Below, piece by piece: positions 1 to 9,677 of a DNA stretch of 9,677 nt. The notes under the pieces are model-generated. The model saw nothing but the letters and a program-made list of their open reading frames with translations. It had not been told where the DNA came from and did not search any database. Both the position numbers and the translations under genes were made by a program. The stretch's first letter is position 1; every line of letters begins with the position of its first letter. The stretch lies in IMG/VR virus record IMGVR_UViG_2657244940_000019. The stretch is one strand, 5' to 3'. The DNA comes from a virus. Taxonomy: Duplodnaviria; Heunggongvirae; Uroviricota; Caudoviricetes.

Positions 1-297
1 GTTGTTGCGCACGTATTCGGTGAACGCACTATGGCGACGCTGGGGCGTCTTATGAGCCTGCTGTCACCCTTTGACGTGGTGATATGGATGACGGATGGCT
101 GGCCGCTGTATGAATCCCGCCTGAAGGGAAAGCTGCACGTAATCAGCAAGCGATATACGCAGCGAATTGAGCGGCATAACCTGAATCTGAGGCAGCACCT
201 GGCACGGCTGGGACGGAAGTCGCTGTCGTTCTCAAAATCGGTGGAGCTGCATGACAAAGTCATCGGGCATTATCTGAACATAAAACACTATCAATAA
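1..297 (+). CDS. insB: IS1 transposase InsB, C-terminal fragment (5' end outside window)
   Basis: Frame 1 is open from base 1 and reads ...[51 protein letters not shown]...HYLNIKHYQ, with stop TAA at 295-297; recognised as the InsB C-terminus. Confidence 0.9.
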
Positions 298-312
298 GTT
301 GGAGTCATTACC
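1..312 (+). mobile_element. IS1 insertion sequence, 3' portion (rest of element lies left of the window)
   Basis: Sequence matches the IS1 right end as I recall it, finishing with the terminal inverted repeat ...ATCAATAAGTTGGAGTCATTACC at 290-312; contains the InsB C-terminus. The reverse complement of the same sequence is found at 9444-9677. Confidence 0.93.
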
Positions 313-387
313 GTGAGCTTCTTCGCCTTCGGCAAGGCCTTCGAAGTATTCTTCGTAAGCCTTTTCCATGATTGTGTCAAAATCCAT
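313..387 (-). pseudogene. 5' fragment (25 codons, MDFDTIMEKAYEEYFEGLAEGEEAH) of a small acidic ORF interrupted by IS1; the frame continues into IS1
   Basis: ATG at 387-385 preceded by AGGTGAGTGAT (Shine-Dalgarno-like); it starts 1 nt after the stop of the upstream small ORF; the IS1 terminus at 312/313 cuts the frame. Identity unknown. Confidence 0.3.
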
Positions 388-388
388 A

Positions 389-625
389 TCACTCACCTGA
401 GTTTCTTTCCAGCCAGCGACGGGCACCATTTTCGGTTTTAAACGTTTTGCTTTTGGTATACGTCATCGCGGTGAACGTACCGTCCTGGTTGGGGAACACG
501 CCACATACCAGAGATTCGCTGTTGCCAAGATCGATAGTATCCATGCTGACCTCATTTCCCCTTAACGCCGGGGTAGCGGAACAAAAACCTGCTGCATAGT
601 TATTAAAGTTGAACCCTGCCGTCAT
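389..625 (-). CDS. Small hypothetical protein in prophage early-left position (78 aa from ATG 625; alternative 51-aa product from ATG 544, which has the stronger GAGGT ribosome-binding site)
   Basis: ORF on the minus strand downstream of a candidate leftward promoter; internal start MDTIDLGNSESLVCGVFPNQDGTFTAMTYTKSKTFKTENGARRWLERNSGE has GAGGT 5 nt upstream. No recognisable domain; resembles the small early-left ORFs of Rac-like prophages (from memory, unverified). Confidence 0.4.
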   Translation of the reverse strand: MTAGFNFNNYAAGFCSATPALRGNEVSMDTIDLGNSESLVCGVFPNQDGTFTAMTYTKSKTFKTENGARRWLERNSGE

Positions 626-723
626 GTTCTTACGCCTCGGGCTGGCTACTTAACCCCTGACCACTGCCTGGTAACTCGAAGTATTGCCCTGCATTCTGTG
701 GGGTGGGGAGAGGGAATGAATGA

Positions 724-752
724 AGTTTAGAAAAATGAACTTTTCAGGTCAA
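724..752 (-). promoter_or_regulatory. Candidate leftward sigma70 promoter (P_L-like): -35 TTGACC (752-747), 17-nt spacer, -10 TAAACT (729-724)
   Basis: Read directly on the minus strand; an operator-like 16-mer lies immediately upstream at 769-754. Confidence 0.35.
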
Positions 753-753
753 T

Positions 754-769
754 GTTTTTTTATCAAAAC
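754..769 (-). promoter_or_regulatory. Operator-like 16-mer GTTTTGATAAAAAAAC (O_L candidate)
   Basis: Same GTTTTGAT....AAAC pattern as the copies at 1476-1491 and 1522-1537 on the other side of the repressor gene. Confidence 0.35.
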
Positions 770-836
770 ATTTTAAGCAGGCAGCTGTTAAGCCATCACC
801 ACGATGGCATACAGTTAATCAAATAGATGAGGTCGG

Positions 837-1475
837 TTAAATATCTTGTTGAATTTTAAAGCATACGCCCAATATGCAAGATAGATCATCCAGCATAATT
901 GAAGGGTAGCGAGGATTCGTGGGGACTAAAAGAATATCCGGCCCTTCTATCTCCAGTTTACGAATGACAGGTGTTGTGGTCCCTTTGGGTAAGGCAAGGA
1001 CAATATTTCCTGGTTGTACGGTTCGATCGGGATCAACAAAAACTGTTGAACCATTTGGGATGGAAACTCCCCCACCAGATGTTGACATACTGTCACTCTC
1101 TAGAACAACTGCAAAGGTATTGGCCGGGATTTCTCCGACAAGCTGCACACAAGAGGTTATTGAGGAATTTTTCATATAATCACTCCAGCTTGCTGCCTGC
1201 TGAAGTGATAGTAGCGGAACCGTTTTTATCGGCGGTAAAGATAGATCAAGCGAATCACCTGTATTTAACTCTCCTCCATTAAGAAGCCAATTTTCGTTTA
1301 CTTTCAATATTTTTGCCAGTGAACTTATGTAACGCGAGGACGGCGCTCCTCCACCGTTCATCCATTGACTTACGGAGCCTTTTGATGCGCCAGTGGCATT
1401 GACAAGGTCTTTGCCTTTCAGGTTTAGCGCATGCATACGTTGGGTTATGCGTTCAGATATTGTTTGCTTGCTCAT
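837..1475 (-). CDS. Phage cI/LexA-like repressor: N-terminal XRE-type helix-turn-helix plus C-terminal S24 self-cleaving peptidase domain (212 aa)
   Basis: Translation MSKQTISERITQRMHALNLKGKDLVNATGASKGSVSQWMNG... (HTH); C-terminal half has the S24 signature: Ser in ...LESDSMSTSGGG... and Lys in ...PVIRKLE.... Divergent from a cro-like gene, with an operator-like array between them. Confidence 0.85.
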   Translation of the reverse strand: MSKQTISERITQRMHALNLKGKDLVNATGASKGSVSQWMNGGGAPSSRYISSLAKILKVNENWLLNGGELNTGDSLDLSLPPIKTVPLLSLQQAASWSDYMKNSSITSCVQLVGEIPANTFAVVLESDSMSTSGGGVSIPNGSTVFVDPDRTVQPGNIVLALPKGTTTPVIRKLEIEGPDILLVPTNPRYPSIMLDDLSCILGVCFKIQQDI

Positions 1476-1537
1476 GTTTTGATTTTAAAACACAGATGGT
1501 TTTGTTTCTTGACTTTCTTTGGTTTTGATTATTAAAC
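1476..1537 (+). promoter_or_regulatory. Operator array between divergent repressor and cro-like genes: three 16-mers starting 23 bp apart (1476 GTTTTGATTTTAAAAC; 1499 GTTTTGTTTCTTGAC, degenerate; 1522 GTTTTGATTATTAAAC)
   Basis: Direct reading; 23-bp phasing (about two helical turns); the motifs overlap candidate promoter elements for both divergent genes. Confidence 0.45.
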
Positions 1538-1538
1538 T
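1509..1538 (+). promoter_or_regulatory. Candidate rightward promoter (P_R-like): -35 TTGACT (1509-1514), 18-nt spacer, -10 TAAACT (1533-1538)
   Basis: Same TTGAC(T/C)...TAAACT architecture as the leftward candidate at 724-752; sits inside operator repeats 2 and 3. Confidence 0.35.
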
Positions 1539-1566
1539 TTTGGCGTTCAGTTTTATGGAGCGACTC

Positions 1567-1809
1567 ATGAAAAAATCAGAAGTATTAGGCTATTTTGGCG
1601 GAGTTGTTAAAACAGCCGCAGCTCTAGGAACGTCAAAAACCACAGTCAGCATGTGGGGGGAAGAGGTTCCGTGGAAATGGGCGTTGCTAATTCAGGCAGT
1701 CACTGCCGGGGCGCTCAAATATGAGTTACACATACCGACGGTTGTCATTCCCGGTTCTGATCATAATCCGCCTTCTAACCAAGGGGGGATTCATGAAAAT
1801 CAAGCATGA
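1567..1809 (+). CDS. Cro-like small HTH protein (YdaS/Cro family-like), 80 aa
   Basis: ATG 1567 preceded by GGAG (1557-1560); MKKSEVLGYFGGVVKTAAALGTSKTTVSMWGEEVPWKWALLIQAVTAGALKYEL... shows the G..K.A..LG.S...VS.W pattern of Cro/YdaS-type proteins; divergent from the repressor. Confidence 0.7.
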   Translation: MKKSEVLGYFGGVVKTAAALGTSKTTVSMWGEEVPWKWALLIQAVTAGALKYELHIPTVVIPGSDHNPPSNQGGIHENQA

Positions 1810-2008
1810 ACACATCCGCATGGCGATGAATGCCTGGGCGCGTCCTGATGGCGAAAAAGTTCCGGCAGCTGGAATAACCCAGGCTTATTTTGAGTTGGGT
1901 ATGACGTTTCCTGAACTGTACGACGACAGCCATCCGGAAGCCCTGGCTCGCAATACCCAGAAAATTTTCCGCTGTACATATGATCGCGGTTTGAGGAAAG
2001 GGTTATGA
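1793..2008 (+). CDS. Small protein in the cII position of the immunity region (71 aa); function uncertain
   Basis: ATG 1793 with strong purine-rich ribosome-binding site AAGGGGGG; overlaps the cro-like gene by 17 nt and its stop TGA (2006-2008) overlaps the mazE ATG (2005-2007). The C-terminal part could be fortuitous read-through of mazE upstream sequence. Confidence 0.5.
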
Positions 2009-2253
2009 TCCACAGTAGCGTAAAGCGTTGGGGAAATTCACCGGCGGTGCGGATCCCGGCTACGTTAATGCAGGCGCTCAATCTGAATATTGATGATGAA
2101 GTGAAGATTGACCTGGTGGATGGCAAATTAATTATTGAGCCAGTGCGTAAAGAGCCCGTATTTACGCTTGCTGAACTGGTCAACGACATCACGCCGGAAA
2201 ACCTCCACGAGAATATCGACTGGGGGGAGCCGAAAGATAAGGAAGTCTGGTAA
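2005..2253 (+). CDS. mazE: Antitoxin MazE (ChpAI)
   Basis: 82-aa translation [82 protein letters not shown] recognised as E. coli MazE; stop overlaps the mazF start (TAATG). Confidence 0.97.
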
Positions 2254-2588
2254 TGGTAAGCCGATACGTACCCGATACGGGCGATCTGATTTGGGTTGAT
2301 TTTGACCCGACAAAAGGTAGCGAGCAAGCCGGACATCGTCCGGCTGTTGTCCTGAGTCCGTTCATGTACAACAACAAAACAGGTATGTGTCTGTGTGTTC
2401 CTTGTACAACGCAATCAAAAGGATATCCGTTCGAAGTTGTTCTATCCGGTCAGGAACGTGATGGCGTAGCGTTAGCTGATCAGGTAAAAAGTATCGCCTG
2501 GCGGGCAAGAGGAGCAACGAAGAAAGGAACAGTTGCCCCAGAGGAATTACAACTCATTAAAGCCAAAATTAACGTGCTGATTGGGTAG
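2253..2588 (+). CDS. mazF: mRNA interferase toxin MazF (ChpAK)
   Basis: 111-aa translation [51 protein letters not shown]... recognised as MazF; codon 9 is ACG (Thr) where I recall Met in the K-12 protein. Confidence 0.97.
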   Translation: MVSRYVPDTGDLIWVDFDPTKGSEQAGHRPAVVLSPFMYNNKTGMCLCVPCTTQSKGYPFEVVLSGQERDGVALADQVKSIAWRARGATKKGTVAPEELQLIKAKINVLIG

Positions 2589-2659
2589 GTGTTACTAACT
2601 CACTTCTATTCTGGTCACAGGTTTCCACCTGACAGACCCGCAATTTTCAGGATAATTCA

Positions 2660-3451
2660 ATGAATCAAATCGACCGTTTGCTCACCATCATGCAGCGCCT
2701 GCGCGACCCGGAAAACGGCTGCCCGTGGGATAAAGAGCAGACATTTGCCACCATTGCGCCTTACACCCTTGAAGAAACCTACGAGGTGCTGGACGCCATC
2801 GCCCGTGAAGATTTTGACGATCTGCGCGGTGAACTGGGCGATCTGCTGTTCCAGGTGGTGTTTTACGCACAAATGGCTCAGGAAGAAGGGCGCTTTGACT
2901 TTAATGATATTTGCGCTGCTATTAGCGATAAATTAGAGCGTCGCCATCCGCATGTTTTTGCTGACAGTTCTGCCGAAAATAGTAGTGAAGTGCTTGCCCG
3001 TTGGGAGCAAATCAAAACCGAAGAGCGCGCGCAGAAAGCGCAGCATTCGGCGCTGGACGATATTCCTCGTAGTTTACCGGCTTTAATGCGTGCGCAAAAA
3101 ATCCAGAAACGTTGCGCCAACGTTGGTTTCGACTGGACGACGCTTGGTCCGGTAGTCGATAAAGTCTACGAAGAGATCGACGAGGTGATGTACGAGGCGC
3201 GGCAGGCTGTTGTCGACCAGGCTAAACTGGAGGAGGAAATGGGTGACCTGCTGTTTGCCACGGTCAATCTGGCTCGTCATTTAGGGACAAAAGCGGAAAT
3301 CGCATTGCAAAAAGCGAACGAAAAATTCGAGCGTCGTTTTCGCGAAGTGGAGCGTATTGTTGCCGCGCGTGGACTGGAAATGACAGGTGTTGACCTCGAA
3401 ACAATGGAAGAAGTCTGGCAACAGGTAAAACGGCAGGAAATTGATCTCTAA
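2660..3451 (+). CDS. mazG: Nucleoside triphosphate pyrophosphohydrolase MazG
   Basis: 263-aa translation MNQIDRLLTIMQRLRDPENGCPWDKEQTFATIAPYTLEETYEVLDAIA... with two MazG-type repeats; conserved position after mazEF. Confidence 0.96.
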   Translation: MNQIDRLLTIMQRLRDPENGCPWDKEQTFATIAPYTLEETYEVLDAIAREDFDDLRGELGDLLFQVVFYAQMAQEEGRFDFNDICAAISDKLERRHPHVFADSSAENSSEVLARWEQIKTEERAQKAQHSALDDIPRSLPALMRAQKIQKRCANVGFDWTTLGPVVDKVYEEIDEVMYEARQAVVDQAKLEEEMGDLLFATVNLARHLGTKAEIALQKANEKFERRFREVERIVAARGLEMTGVDLETMEEVWQQVKRQEIDL

Positions 3452-3464
3452 GGGAATTACGCGG

Positions 3465-3506
3465 TCAAGCGCGATTTGTGTCATTTTTTAAATGACAAGC
3501 GCTTGA
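3465..3506 (+). terminator. Interrupted hairpin 14 nt after the mazG stop (outer arms TCAAGCGC / GCGCTTGA, inner arms GTCATTT / AAATGAC), followed by TTTG; candidate mazG terminator or attenuator
   Basis: Inverted repeats read directly; the downstream T-tract is weak, so function is uncertain. Confidence 0.3.
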
Positions 3507-3594
3507 TTTGCGTCAAAAACATTTACCCCAAAGGGGCTATTTTCTCACTCCTGATTTCAATAGTGCGCTGGCGAAGAGGAGGGATAATGAAAGT

Positions 3595-3623
3595 TTGTGG
3601 CACAGGTCATGTTCGGGTATACT
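3595..3623 (+). promoter_or_regulatory. Candidate pyrG promoter: -35 TTGTGG (3595-3600), 17-nt spacer, -10 TATACT (3618-3623)
   Basis: Good -10 hexamer about 55 nt upstream of the pyrG ATG; weak -35. Motif-based only. Confidence 0.3.
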
Positions 3624-3663
3624 GCTTTCCCGTCCTGGTTATTCCATCGTCTTTTCAACCTAA

Positions 3664-5316
<1,653 letters not shown>

Positions 5317-5335
5317 GTAAAAAAGTTAGAACGGC

Positions 5336-5358
5336 AACGCGTACCCTGGGTACGCGTT
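5336..5358 (+). other. Perfect hairpin AACGCGTACC-CTG-GGTACGCGTT in the pyrG-eno intergenic region, followed by GTTTGT
   Basis: 10-bp perfect inverted repeat read directly; 20 nt after the pyrG stop and 45 nt before the eno ATG. Candidate partial terminator or RNA processing/stability element. Confidence 0.45.
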
Positions 5359-5388
5359 GTTTGTCTGGAGTTTCAGTTTAACTAGTGA

Positions 5389-6702
<1,314 letters not shown>

Positions 6703-6721
6703 GTCTGACTTTATCTGATTT

Positions 6722-6752
6722 AAAAATGCCAGCCTTCGGGCTGGCATTTTTT
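6722..6752. terminator. Bidirectional rho-independent terminator shared by convergent eno and ygcG: AAAAATGCCAGCC-TTCG-GGCTGGCATTTTTT
   Basis: 9-bp GC-rich stem, 4-nt loop, A-tract upstream and T-tract downstream, lying between the eno stop (6700-6702) and the ygcG stop (6762-6764). Confidence 0.85.
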
Positions 6753-6761
6753 ATGGTTGAG

Positions 6762-7634
6762 TTACCAGCGACCGGACGCGCCGCCACCGCCAGAAGAACC
6801 GCCCCCGCCGCTAAATCCGCCGCCACTTGAGCCACCACCGGAACCGCTGTTGTCTGAATGATAACTTCTACCAGATGCTTTTTTCTGAAGTACACATAAA
6901 CAGGTAAAGACCATAATGGTGGTGAAAGTAAAAAAGAAGAAAAATACAGCAATGGAAAAAGTTTTATCGGAGAACAGGAATAAATCTAAAAGATAGATTG
7001 CTGAAATACAGACACTGCTTTTACATGCGCGACAAAAATTACTGCCTTGATGAAAAAACCAGAAAGGGAAGAACATCACTGCAAATACCCAAAAAATAGC
7101 AAAGTAGTAATGATCGCTGGAAGATGCTGATTCACTTTCTGAAGGATTAACCGAATATTGGTGTTGTGAAGTGAGTCGGTTATTCAAAGCGATTATAGCT
7201 AACTCTAATCCCTTAGCTAATTTTTGTTGTTTAAATGCGGGTATCATGTTGCTACGGATGATATCTCCAGCCAGAGCGTCGGTTACCTTTTCTTCCAGCC
7301 CATAACCTACCTGGATGCGGACAGTGCGATCCGACCAGGCAACAATGATCAGTATCCCATCATTACGTTTGGCATCTCCTAAACGCCAATTGTCAAAAAC
7401 CCTTGTAGCATATTGTTCAATGGAATCGTCTCCGGTGGACGGCACTACTAATACAGCGACCTGCGCCCGTGTTTTATGTGTAATATCCTGCAGTTGCTGT
7501 GTCAGTGATTGTTGTTCAGAAGTGCTTAACGTACCAGTAATATCGGTCACCTGTTGGCGCAGTTCCGGCACAGCAATTTGCTGGGCAAGCCCAGGAAGGC
7601 ACCACAAAGTGAATAGAATAAAGATTAAGCGCAT
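6762..7634 (-). CDS. ygcG: TPM-domain membrane protein, YgcG-like (290 aa from ATG 7634; an in-frame TTG at 7646 would give 294 aa)
   Basis: Signal peptide [22 protein letters not shown]-type domain (...[37 protein letters not shown]...), hydrophobic transmembrane segments, and Gly-rich C-terminus ...[25 protein letters not shown]. Position convergent with eno matches K-12 ygcG from memory; exact identity not verified. Confidence 0.8.
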
Positions 7635-7639
7635 TACGA

Positions 7640-8782
7640 TCACCAACGGTCGGATGAACCGCCGCCTCCTGAAGAACCGCCACCACCGCGGAAAGAATTT
7701 CTCGACGAAGAGCGAGAATGAGCATGAGCATTACGATTCCCCATTTTCCTGTTGCTTTTTTCTCCTGACCCCAGCTTAAGATTGCCAGTAAATTTGGCCA
7801 CAATGATCAGCAGAACGATGCCAGCAATGGTTATTGGGCCGATAAAATGATCAATTAACCCAATAATTGTTGAGATGAATGCAATATCTTTATTACTGGC
7901 GAACACCAGGCACCATCCCACAATAATTATCAGCATCACGACAAACAATGAATTTCGTCCTGATTCACGAAATTGCGGAGTCTTCTTTTGTTTTTTCACT
8001 TTAGCGTTTTTATTTTTTGGGGCCAGCATCATAGGAAATACGCGGCACATATTAAAAACTACTGCGAGACGCTGCCAGCAGATTGCTGCGAAAAATAAAC
8101 TAAAACAAACGACCGACACCCGCCGAATGATGACATCGTCCTGAAAGCAGAAAAACCAGACCGTAGGTGTAATCATTGATATCATCCATATGCCAGGTCC
8201 TGGACGGCTGGTAAATCGCCAGAGGACAATGATGGCAACGATCATCAGCACTGTCCAGGCAAGGCATGGCAGCGAAAGTTGCGGATTAGCAAACAGATGA
8301 TTGGCTAAAGCATCCAAAGGGCTAAGGTTCGCTTTGATATGGGTAAACTGTGCGATGCTTTCAATTCCGCCCGTTAATCCAGCAAAGAGATTGTTTTTTT
8401 CGAATTCTGGCTGCATATGGTAACGAACAATTTGCGCAGCTTGTTCCGGCGGCAACATCTGTTCCAGTCCATGTCCAATCTTCATTGACGCCAGCCCTTC
8501 CGGCCAAACGACGAGAATTAAGATACCTTCGCCATATCGCTTCTCTCCAACGGGTTTCCAGTGATATACCCCGTATCTCTGCGAGGCTGCAAGTTTAATG
8601 TTTTTGCCCCCTGTTGTCGGCGTAACCAACACGGCCACCTGGAAGTGGTTTTGCTGCTCGAGAGTCTGTAAAGCACTTTGTTCTTCTGTCGTTAATGTCC
8701 CGGTTAAGTCAGTCACTGAAGGCAATCGTTCAGCGAATACCTGAAAACCGCATAGCATCAGAAGTAAGAGAAAAATACGCAT
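7640..8782 (-). CDS. TPM-domain paralog with expanded polytopic membrane region (380 aa)
   Basis: Signal peptide [20 protein letters not shown]-type core (...[25 protein letters not shown]...), at least four hydrophobic helices separated by a Lys-rich loop ([23 protein letters not shown]), and tail ...[16 protein letters not shown]. Ribosome-binding site AAGGA before ATG 8782; its stop lies 5 nt before the ygcG start. Confidence 0.78.
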
Positions 8783-8796
8783 ATCAATTCCTTTTG

Positions 8797-9443
8797 TTAC
8801 CAGCGCCCGGAAGCGCCACCGCCACCAGATGAACCGCCACCACCGCTAAAATTGTCATTGTCGAATGAAGAGGATGACGATGATGAATAGTGGGAGGAAG
8901 AATTGCTTCTTGTATGGCGTGATGGCTGGTTGGCATCACGCATCGAATCCCGAACCTTTTTGCCGAAGGGGGTAAAAGCGATGGCAACTGCCAGAAACGG
9001 TGTGGCGAAGCAGAGTAATGTTGTGAGTACTCCCCAGCTTCCGCTGAAACCTGCTATAGGTAAAACAAAGGCCAGTACAATGGCTGCGAAGCAAATTACT
9101 CCCAACGTTTTGATATATCCTCTGGCAGAAATAAACGTCAGTATTATCGCCCAGACTAATAAAGCCCACCAACCGCTAAAGGGCAAAGGGTGATCGGTCG
9201 GTGTTATCGTTGCTGAATTATTCCCCGTCAGGCGACTTTCAATATCGTTGATCCCCTTTTGTAAACCACCAGCCAGGTCGCCTTTTTTAAATGCCGGAAT
9301 AATACTGTTGCGAATAATTTTCCCGGACTGTGCATCCGTAATAATACCTTCCAGCCCGTAACCGATTTCAATACGCACGGTATGATCCTGCCAGGCGACT
9401 AACAGTAGAACGCCATCATCACGGTCTTTATCACCCGGTTTCC
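8797..9443 (-). pseudogene. Third TPM-domain paralog, 5'-truncated by IS1 (about 80 N-terminal codons missing, including the signal peptide)
   Basis: The frame is open from the IS1 junction (9443/9444): ...KPGDKDRDDGVLLLVAWQDHTVRIEIGYGLEGIITDAQSGKIIRNSIIPAFKKGDLAGG... aligns with YgcG residues about 88 onward; then membrane helices, a Ser-rich stretch and tail ...[17 protein letters not shown]. The first possible start inside the native part is GTG at 9378. Confidence 0.75.
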
Positions 9444-9677
9444 GGTAATGACTCCAACTTATTGATAGTGTTTTATGTTCAGATAATGCCCGATGACTTT
9501 GTCATGCAGCTCCACCGATTTTGAGAACGACAGCGACTTCCGTCCCAGCCGTGCCAGGTGCTGCCTCAGATTCAGGTTATGCCGCTCAATTCGCTGCGTA
9601 TATCGCTTGCTGATTACGTGCAGCTTTCCCTTCAGGCGGGATTCATACAGCGGCCAGCCATCCGTCATCCATATCAC
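9444..9677 (-). mobile_element. IS1 insertion sequence, 3' portion in inverted orientation (rest of element lies right of the window)
   Basis: 9444-9466 GGTAATGACTCCAACTTATTGAT is the reverse complement of the IS1 terminus seen at 290-312; the following sequence is the reverse complement of window 79-312. Confidence 0.93.
9459..9677 (-). CDS. insB: IS1 transposase InsB, C-terminal fragment (5' end outside window)
   Basis: Minus-strand translation ...[35 protein letters not shown]...HYLNIKHYQ, identical to the left copy; stop at 9461-9459. Confidence 0.9.

Follow-up and report, generated by a model that had tools for sequence, protein, structure and literature searches.

The mazEF toxin-antitoxin pair of E. 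coli K-12 lies in the order relA-mazE-mazF-mazG and is governed from the relA-mazE spacer, which holds two autoregulated promoters (P2/P3) 13 nt apart, a 47-bp 'cab' operator (the 'alternating palindrome') within them and a FIS site further upstream (PMC4803016, PMC4333400, PMC5610899). Of the two, the downstream promoter is reported to be tenfold weaker than its upstream partner, even in the intact form (PMC4803016). Lambdoid immunity regions of the YdaS/YdaT type, whose products are analogues of Cro and CII, are found in CP-933P and in prophages beside ompW or mtfA in many E. coli. YdaT has a POU-like DNA-binding domain (about residues 3-90) and a C-terminal helix, alpha6, through which it forms the tetramer needed for DNA binding; a 1-96 fragment is already unable to bind DNA (PMC9986795). 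The two kinds of system meet in paaR2-paaA2-parE2 of CP-933P, where an addictive toxin-antitoxin pair inside a bistable CI/Cro/CII-like prophage switch has been studied experimentally (PMC8630535).

The window analysed here, 9,677 nt in length, is the entire contig CDRA01000096.1 of the draft E. coli-type assembly GCA_000947375.1. Two loci that are separate in clonal sister strains meet in it end to end, with an exact joint: on the left a lambdoid prophage remnant, truncated by IS1 and broken within ydaT past codon 60, and on the right the mazE-mazF-mazG-pyrG-eno block of the chromosome, which sets in 30 bp upstream of mazE. An earlier note on this DNA had pointed to a prophage immunity module sitting directly on mazEF where relA is expected, and this holds at every position it gave; relA sequence is absent from the window, while the mazG-pyrG-eno neighbours are present downstream of mazEF. 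IS1 lies at both contig ends, positions 79-313 and 9443-9677 being exact inverted copies, and the right-hand element truncates the third YgcG/TPM paralogue. The features of the left piece and of the join are as follows.

1..313, plus strand: partial IS1 at the contig end (3' part of insB, right end at 313; PF03400 DDE_Tnp_IS1)
315..1974: lambdoid prophage immunity segment (ydfB' - ydfA - cI-like - cro - 5' part of ydaT)
389..625, minus strand: ydfA (DUF1391; PF07151, E 2.9e-27)
752-724, minus strand: PL-like promoter, TTGACC-17-TAAACT (consensus match only)
754-769: perfect palindrome GTTTT-N6-AAAAC adjoining the PL-like promoter (consensus match only)
837..1475, minus strand: cI-like repressor, 212 aa, with HTH and S24 autopeptidase domain (Pfam; alignment to lambda CI)
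1476..1537: three putative operator repeats at 23 bp spacing, direct-repeat families D1 and D2 (pattern search and inspection)
1509..1538, plus strand: PR-like promoter, sigma-70-like, TTGACT-18-TAAACT (consensus match only)
1567..1809, plus strand: cro-like gene of the P22_Cro family (PF14549, E 1.1e-15)
1793..2008, plus strand: ydaT'::mazE-leader fusion ORF, 71 aa (PF06254 on record)
1974..1975: prophage/chromosome breakpoint, ...TTTTCCGCTG / TACATATGATCGCGG... (alignments)

The immunity segment is 99.7-99.8% identical to prophages of thousands of E. coli genomes, for example that beside ompW in ATCC 11775. It shares with YdaS/YdaT-type regions the divergent repressor and cro genes, the 17-nt overlap of cro and ydaT, operator-like repeats and PL- and PR-like promoters. 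It differs from them in that ydaT breaks off after 60 of its 141 codons and mazEF replaces the replication genes that always follow ydaT; the repressor is of the S24 type, whereas CP-933P has PaaR2. The operator-like repeats read GTTTTGATTTTAAAAC (1476-1491), GTTTTGTTTCTTGACT (1499-1514) and GTTTTGATTATTAAAC (1522-1537), and the second and third overlap the PR-like promoter. The cro-like gene has GGAG 7 nt upstream, and its counterparts in reference records are annotated as Cro/CI family or DicC. No plus-strand terminator-like site was predicted between 1476 and 2660.

That the divergent gene encodes a cI-like repressor with an HTH and an S24 peptidase, as the earlier note had it, is borne out by Pfam, with Peptidase_S24 above the cut-off and HTH_3 (E 1.7e-4) just below it at 22.0 bits against a gathering cut-off of 23.0, and by alignment with lambda CI residues 25-224 (3bdn, E 3.8e-10). 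The HTH is further backed by alignment to the N-terminal domains of 434 and P22 c2 repressors. Annotated gene calls cover just the C-terminal 112 of its 212 residues. The catalytic dyad is kept, with the Ser of DSM and the Lys of IRKL aligning to lambda Ser149 and Lys192. The description of the protein as SOS-cleavable fares less well: lambda Ala111-Gly112 (QAG-M) aligns to Ala94-Ala95 (QAA-S) in place of a canonical Ala-Gly or Cys-Gly scissile bond, and the QQAAS motif is conserved among homologues of 84-99% identity. Our literature search returned no paper on whether the scissile-bond Gly of LexA or CI can be replaced by Ala, and the entries in phage databases that carry this immunity module are in-silico prophage predictions. 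With the Ser/Lys dyad present but Ala-Ala where Ala-Gly is canonical, the protein is a putative rather than an established SOS-cleavable repressor.

The small ORF between cro and mazE, which the earlier note placed in the position of cII, consists of YdaT residues 1-60 followed by 11 foreign residues read from the mazE leader. Full-length YdaT has 141 aa and matches PDB 3c4r (E 1e-88) and 8bt1 (E 3e-79) over its whole length. Only native residues 1-60 remain here; the cut falls inside the DNA-binding domain and before the tetramerisation helix, and no better-than-chance match to the YdaT operator TTGATT-N6-AATCAA occurs in the window. YdaT' is, as judged from its sequence, a dead fragment and not a CII-like regulator. 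Both the identity of this truncated ydaT and the 30-bp mazE remnant had been missed before. Each of the overlaps previously described was found: 17 nt between cro and the small ORF, stop on start between the small ORF and mazE, and 1 nt between mazE and mazF. The intact prophage already has the 17-nt overlap and K-12 the 1-nt overlap, leaving the ATGA overlap, in which the TGA at 2006-2008 lies on the mazE ATG at 2005-2007, as the sole new one of the three. It is a one-in-three accident of the frame at the junction, because the other two frames meet a TGA inside the 30-bp leader.

The right piece begins with what is left of that leader.

1975..2004, plus strand: residual mazE leader, -30 to -1 (alignment to K-12 and sister contigs; relaxed promoter scan)
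2005..2253, plus strand: mazE antitoxin, identical to K-12 (PF04014 at 3.5e-14)
2253..2588, plus strand: mazF toxin (PF02452 at 5e-24)
2629-2656: promoter-like CTGACA-16-GATAAT ahead of mazG
2660..3451, plus strand: mazG
9443..9677, minus strand: partial IS1 in inverted orientation at the contig end

MazE and MazF are intact, an AbrB-type antitoxin and a PemK/MazF toxin with overlapping genes. The locus resembles that of K-12 in its proteins (MazE 100%, MazF 99% identical, with M9T in MazF common to the sister strains), in the 1-nt overlap, in mazG-pyrG-eno, in the Shine-Dalgarno sequence and in the last 30 bp of the leader. It differs in that K-12 has relA and the autoregulated promoters with their operator, whereas prophage ydaT sequence stands here instead. 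Alignment to the K-12 spacer places the start of homology at 1975, so that only the last 30 bp of 77 bp survive and 1793-1974 is conserved prophage ydaT rather than spacer. A trivial loss of relA that kept the K-12 promoter is thereby ruled out.

Retained in the 30 bp are a TATGAT -10-like hexamer (1979-1984), the Shine-Dalgarno GAGG (1993-1996) and ~13 bp from the end of the 'b' operator arm. The K-12 palindrome arms and the high-affinity ATATAT MazE site sit upstream of this segment; arms c and a (including ATATAT) and most of b, about 34 of the 47 operator bp in all, have been replaced by ydaT sequence, and relA, the FIS region and both -35 regions are lost with them. This pair accordingly lacks its own P2/P3 promoters, complete 'cab' operator and FIS site. 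The published reviews give the layout of the spacer without coordinates, and geometry indicates that any start site ahead of the Shine-Dalgarno calls for a -35 element farther out than -43, therefore outside the retained 30 bp. The wild-type pair TTGATA-15-TATGAT scores 10/12, and the best residual pair at the junction scores 8/12; in a relaxed promoter scan the junction created no new promoter above 8/12, and that only at poor spacing. If the contig is correct, we predict that mazEF has lost autoregulation together with control by ppGpp and FIS, since relA, the FIS region, the operator arms and the -35 regions have been replaced.

The two flanks of the breakpoint are each found elsewhere. Positions 1-1974 are 100% identical to sister contig L014, in which full-length ydaT is followed by replication genes, and positions 1975-9677 are 100% identical to sister contigs L004-L007, in which relA-mazE is normal. 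The equivalent points are ydaT GCTG/GATAGAG in L014 and the relA-mazE spacer GTATC/TACATATG in L005. The two sequences share no base at the join, which has no repeat, shared k-mer or N, and the contig passes through it unbroken. The junction was absent from the clonal sister assemblies, from a viral collection, from a metagenome collection and from 5,426 complete E. coli genomes (0/5,426), and the arrangement thus lacks the conservation of toxin-antitoxin pairs naturally embedded in prophage immunity switches; the check on recurrence proposed in the earlier note has thus come out negative in complete E. coli genomes. The exact 71-aa fusion product was seen in one contig only among 153 billion gene positions, and a product from the alternative 95-aa start was not on record. 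Shorter C-terminal YdaT fragments exist in the protein collection, but these are generic. Because the join is found in this assembly only, it is, on these genomic comparisons, a singleton and not an evolved system. Either the strain has undergone a very recent rearrangement of its own or the contig is chimeric, the two alternatives that the earlier note had allowed for.

We favour a very recent illegitimate recombination in one isolate, blunt and not mediated by an IS, that left mazEF de-autoregulated and mainly distal in the rightward operon of the prophage; we give this a probability of roughly 0.55. If the backbone is collinear with K-12, as the gene order in L014 suggests, about 345 kb including essential genes would go in a simple deletion that reached from the prophage remnant to mazE; an inversion, or something more complex in a genome scrambled by IS1, would fit better. 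The apparent lethality of the deletion also suits a different account, in which the true genome is like its sisters, with full-length ydaT and normal relA-mazE, and 1974/1975 arose through assembly, scaffolding, gap closing or chimeric library molecules. Such a chimera, which we regard as possible but rather doubtful, would explain why both flanks match two separate sister loci perfectly and why the junction occurs nowhere else. The reach of CDRA01000096.1 and L014 into IS1 (235-313 bp) is unusually long and suggests extension or gap filling after assembly. An inversion predicts a reciprocal join (...ATATACTGTATC/GATAGAGAAAGAC) with a junction-specific ORF of 86 aa, and its absence from the protein collection is a weak point in the same direction, as the gene call could differ. 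L014 carries a singleton non-IS fusion of its own, DUF977'::'tdcG, an observation that runs counter to the recombination; as its accession series apparently places it in the same sequencing project, the project's assemblies could be prone to chimeras. Against this, a graph-based misjoin would have no obvious cause at a join that lacks any repeat, shared k-mer or N. Sister assemblies cross both breakpoints unbroken, which gives no reason to expect contig ends there, and wild-type paths, if present, would make the graph fork and end the contig at 1974/1975.

A genuine junction could also be inert or decaying, with mazEF either essentially untranscribed, the prophage promoter being tightly repressed and the residual -10 too weak, or expressed constitutively at a low level from TATGAT or a fortuitous promoter, independently of the prophage switch and of DNA damage. 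The surviving TATGAT has poor -35 partners, a toxin-antitoxin pair does no harm when it is silent or when both genes are expressed together at all times, and so needs no selection, and the Ala-Ala at the scissile position means that derepression in the SOS response may not occur. This outcome nevertheless seems improbable to us, because from the PR-like promoter to mazE there is neither a terminator-like site nor an untranslated gap and any promoter activity should reach mazEF, and because TATGAT, which we infer to be the -10 element of the native downstream promoter, would belong to the weaker of the two native promoters even if it were intact.

Under the favoured recombination, transcription would run from the PR-like promoter through cro and ydaT' to mazE and mazF; the four ORFs abut or overlap one another between 1567 and 2588 with no untranslated gap. 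The pair would be largely silent under CI-like repression and co-expressed upon derepression. Residual TATGAT or a fortuitous promoter could also drive expression independent of PR. The earlier note had proposed that mazEF could be read through from the PR-like promoter. The structural part of that proposal stands, and is stronger than was known at the time because the native promoter and operator are largely deleted, with no terminator-like site in between; an evolved or recurring coupling does not stand, the junction being a singleton. Tentatively, and provided that the junction is genuine, a natural promoter swap may have taken autoregulation away from a chromosomal type II toxin-antitoxin pair and put the pair under a lambdoid CI/Cro switch. 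Production of MazE and MazF would then be confined to bursts, whenever stochastic switching or DNA damage sets off the rightward promoter of the prophage remnant, and after re-repression labile MazE could decay faster than MazF, leading to delayed growth arrest.

Such an arrangement would resemble paaR2-paaA2-parE2, in which a type II pair is likewise placed under prophage immunity regulators instead of classical autoregulation, as is predicted here. That pair, however, shares its transcript with the CI analogue and so lies on the repressor side, whereas mazEF lies on the cro side in a singleton known from sequence alone. It would also resemble promoter capture or operon fusion in IS-rich Escherichia and Shigella, where a blunt non-homologous join puts genes behind a foreign promoter; this lineage has other IS1-associated rearrangements, but here the breakpoint has neither IS nor microhomology. 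There is no sign of selection for the combination of prophage and mazEF. With one occurrence, and none in clonal relatives, the case gives no ground for supposing that evolution has tied mazEF to prophage induction. In practical terms, a striking gene adjacency in a draft contig that is short and bounded by IS elements calls for comparison with sister assemblies and reads before it is interpreted. If the junction is true, mazEF is intact but has exchanged its own promoter and operator for an early promoter of the prophage. Autoregulation, and the coupling of a toxin-antitoxin pair to a bistable phage switch, could then be studied in a natural experiment, and the isolate would offer a ready-made test of the purpose of mazEF autoregulation.

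The window (9,677 bp) comprises the whole of contig CDRA01000096.1 from draft assembly GCA_000947375.1 and contains zero N. It ends at both sides in partial IS1 copies in inverted orientation, the usual cause of short-read contig stops. The earlier note had placed a prophage immunity module directly on mazEF, and all of its coordinates hold on rechecking the ORF positions and overlaps:

1-313, partial IS1
following the left IS1, ydfB' and ydfA (DUF1391), the first genes
837-1475, minus, cI-like repressor (Pfam domains and lambda CI alignment)
1509-1538, plus, sigma-70-like site TTGACT-18-TAAACT by consensus match, a candidate rightward (PR-like) prophage promoter
1567-1809, plus, cro (P22_Cro in Pfam, E 1e-15)
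1793-2008, plus, 71-aa ORF
ATG at 2005-2007, plus, mazE
2253-2588, plus, mazF
thereafter, plus, mazG, pyrG and eno in that order
6762-9378, minus, three YgcG/TPM paralogues 3' of eno
9443-9677, partial IS1

Clonal relatives were traced via a rare 380-aa YgcG-like protein, present in 17 contigs only, and via the IS1::ydfB' fusion ORF. The three YgcG/TPM-domain paralogues lie in tandem and each ends in a Gly/Ser-rich tail; IS1 (9443) cuts the third short at 193 aa, whereas related cluster members have 297 aa. Several of the sister assemblies are fragmented and end near 6844-6961, in or beside the region coding for these tails.

Alignments to K-12, to 4,708 E. coli genomes and to the sister contigs all agree that chromosomal homology begins at 1975. 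The sequence reads ...AAAATTTTCCGCTG up to the breakpoint and TACATATGATCGCGG... beyond it; the intact prophage instead reads on GATAGAG, the chromosome is preceded by ...ACTGTATC, and no base at the join is common to both parents. Positions 313-1974 are a lambdoid prophage immunity region that thousands of E. coli genomes carry at 99.7-99.8% identity; the annotations given to its genes in those genomes are ydfB, ydfA, LexA family protein, Cro/CI family regulator and 'toxin YdaT family protein'. Positions 1-1974 are 100% identical to sister contig L014 (CDQY01000220.1), which runs on through full-length ydaT into replication genes, and 1975-9677 match sister contigs L004-L007 at 100% identity with zero mismatches, all four running on from mazE into relA, rlmD and barA. 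The window thus joins, exactly and end to end, two loci that lie apart in otherwise indistinguishable genomes. The earlier note had raised the question of recurrence, and the arrangement does not recur: none of 5,426 complete E. coli genomes spans the junction, its 24-mer was not found in the metagenome collection nor a 29-mer in the viral collection, and among 153 billion gene positions the 71-aa fusion protein was found in no contig but this.

Only the last 30 of the 77 bp of the relA-mazE spacer are retained. In K-12 this spacer reads gccgaaatttgctcgt-ATCTACA-a-TGTAGAT-tg-ATATAT-actgt-ATCTACA-tatgatagcggtttgaggaaagggtt-ATG. It carries two promoters 13 nt apart with a 47-bp 'cab' alternating-palindrome operator within them, ATATAT belonging to its site 'a', and a FIS site further upstream (PMC4803016, PMC4333400, PMC3879964, PMC5610899). 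The window keeps only ...TACA-tatgatCgcggtttgaggaaagggtt, by our reading about 13 of the 47 operator bp. Promoter loss was argued from geometry rather than from published start-site coordinates: for a transcript to include the mazE Shine-Dalgarno, its start can be no later than about -13, which places its -35 element beyond -43, where the retained 30 bp do not reach. A relaxed promoter scan scored the wild-type TTGATA-15-TATGAT at 10/12, and the junction TATGAT (1979-1984), paired with CAGAAA or TACCCA, at 8/12 with poor spacing. Breakpoint, geometry and scan together indicate that the native mazEF promoter and operator are largely gone, a loss that goes beyond the earlier note, which had proposed the comparison with K-12 to locate the start of mazE homology. 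The K-12 antisense RNA aMEF (annotated 2911051-2911450) would map to approximately 1894-2293 on the minus strand, starting within mazF and crossing the junction. Over the final ~80 nt, where the K-12 RNA is antisense to the relA end, it would here be antisense to the truncated ydaT instead, and any aMEF function relying on its 3' part would be altered.

The 71-aa ORF does occupy the cII position, as described earlier, but it is a dead ydaT fragment, with YdaT residues 1-60 native and 11 further residues read from the mazE leader. In all the intact contexts examined, ydaT encodes 141 aa and replication genes come next; YdaT of the same family matches structures 3c4r (E 1e-88) and 8bt1 (E 3e-79) over its full length. 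YdaT of prophage CP-933P is a functional CII analogue with a POU-like DNA-binding domain (~residues 3-90) and a C-terminal tetramer-forming helix, and a 1-96 version is already without DNA binding (PMC9986795, PMC8630535). The 17-nt overlap of cro with this ORF and the 1-base overlap of mazE and mazF are native to the parent loci. The only new overlap is ATGA, between the TGA at 2006-2008 and the mazE start codon. It arises in one of three junction frames, because the other two meet TGA within the 30-bp leader, and is no purpose-built signal for coupling; mazE retains its own GAGG at 1993-1996.

The anatomy of the prophage side suggests an intact switch. Three repeats at 23-bp spacing lie in the 91-bp divergent region. 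Repeat 1 (1476-1491) is a perfect GTTTT-N6-AAAAC palindrome, and repeat 3 (1522-1537) departs from it at a single position; together with repeat 2 (1499-1514), repeat 3 covers parts of the -35 and -10 of the PR-like site. Another perfect GTTTT-N6-AAAAC palindrome (754-769) adjoins a leftward promoter-like TTGACC-17-TAAACT at 752-724, which has its TAAACT -10 in common with the PR-like site, and 724-769 probably holds a PL/OL pair from which ydfA and ydfB are expressed. The repressor ORF encodes 212 aa with Peptidase_S24 and an HTH_3 match (E 1.7e-4) just under the Pfam cut-off, and residues 13-204 align to full-length lambda CI (E 3.8e-10). The start codon (ATG at 1475) lacks a Shine-Dalgarno, and a minus-strand TAAAAT lies 7 nt 5' of it, suggesting that the mRNA is leaderless like those of lambda cI and paaR2 (PMC8630535). 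Such an mRNA would account for the fact that only the C-terminal 112 aa are recognised by gene callers and in RefSeq (WP_001362937.1, 'LexA family protein'), and the full-length repressor looks to be systematically under-annotated across thousands of genomes. Its catalytic Ser and Lys fall opposite Ser149 and Lys192 of lambda CI. Where lambda has the scissile Ala111-Gly112 (VQAGMFSP), the ungapped alignment gives QQAASWSD, Ala94-Ala95, kept in homologues down to 84% identity. To our knowledge, the natural CI/LexA-type cleavage sites known so far are Ala-Gly or Cys-Gly. A literature search for Ala at the Gly position of the scissile bond found no paper, and the phage records with the same module are in-silico prophages, so the repressor is no more than putatively SOS-cleavable.

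We favour a genuine junction, with a probability of roughly 0.6-0.65, and consider an assembly artefact less likely. The join has no repeat, shared k-mer or N, and sister assemblies traverse both breakpoints, at neither of which a contig would thus be expected to end; the contig is unbroken through the join, and the reads presumably offered no competing path. That the join is a singleton counts towards an artefact, as does a second case. The L014 assembly, apparently of the same project by its accession series, carries its own singleton non-IS fusion, prophage DUF977'::'tdcG (5618-6976, 452 aa), found in one contig only and in none of the complete E. coli genomes. Either the lineage accumulates blunt junctions at the prophage remnant or these assemblies are chimera-prone. 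The window and the L014 contig also reach unusually far into IS1, hinting at post-assembly extension.

The L014 remnant leads to tdcG, yhaO and yhaM in the same orientation as relA/mazE. On a K-12-collinear backbone, a simple deletion from remnant to mazE would remove ~345 kb including essential genes; this cost counts towards an artefact, or favours an inversion or more complex event. Events of either sort are plausible in a lineage with IS1-mediated rearrangements. In L004 an unannotated ~1.6-kb gap (8373-10001) beside the TPM genes matches IS1, and beyond it lies the argI-rraB-valS-holC-pepA region, which in K-12 is ~1.5 Mb distant; this adjacency is a large rearrangement in the lineage, apparently mediated by IS1. 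The predicted junction-specific reciprocal ORF was absent from the protein collection, weak evidence either way.

If the junction is genuine, most transcription of mazEF would come from the cro operon, with mazEF at its distal end. Both genes are intact (MazF is M9T relative to K-12, as in sister strains), and the PR-like promoter lies 467 bp upstream. The ORFs are contiguous or overlapping over 1567-2588 and no plus-strand terminator-like site was found between 1476 and 2660, so neither intrinsic nor Rho-dependent polarity is expected. Occupation of the operators by the CI-like repressor would keep the pair off, and a flip of the switch would turn both genes on in balance; autoregulation by MazE-MazF would be lost, as would the inputs from ppGpp and FIS, and mazG would keep its own promoter-like site (2629-2656). 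Flipping by DNA damage would hinge on the Ala-Ala site, and, more speculatively, MazF release might be delayed after re-repression. The observation in the earlier note is confirmed and its interpretation partly supported.

Neither part is unusual: mazEFG is an operon of the K-12 type, and the immunity module is lambdoid and very common. In function the nearest analogue is the CP-933P system paaR2-paaA2-parE2, whose toxin-antitoxin pair lies inside a CI/Cro/CII-like bistable switch; there paaA2-parE2, the subject of experimental work, is on the side of the repressor (PMC8630535), whereas mazEF here is a one-off on the cro side. The junction is a singleton structural variant, or chimera, of known parts; it bears no sign of an evolved system, and the arrangement has a neat predicted regulatory consequence.
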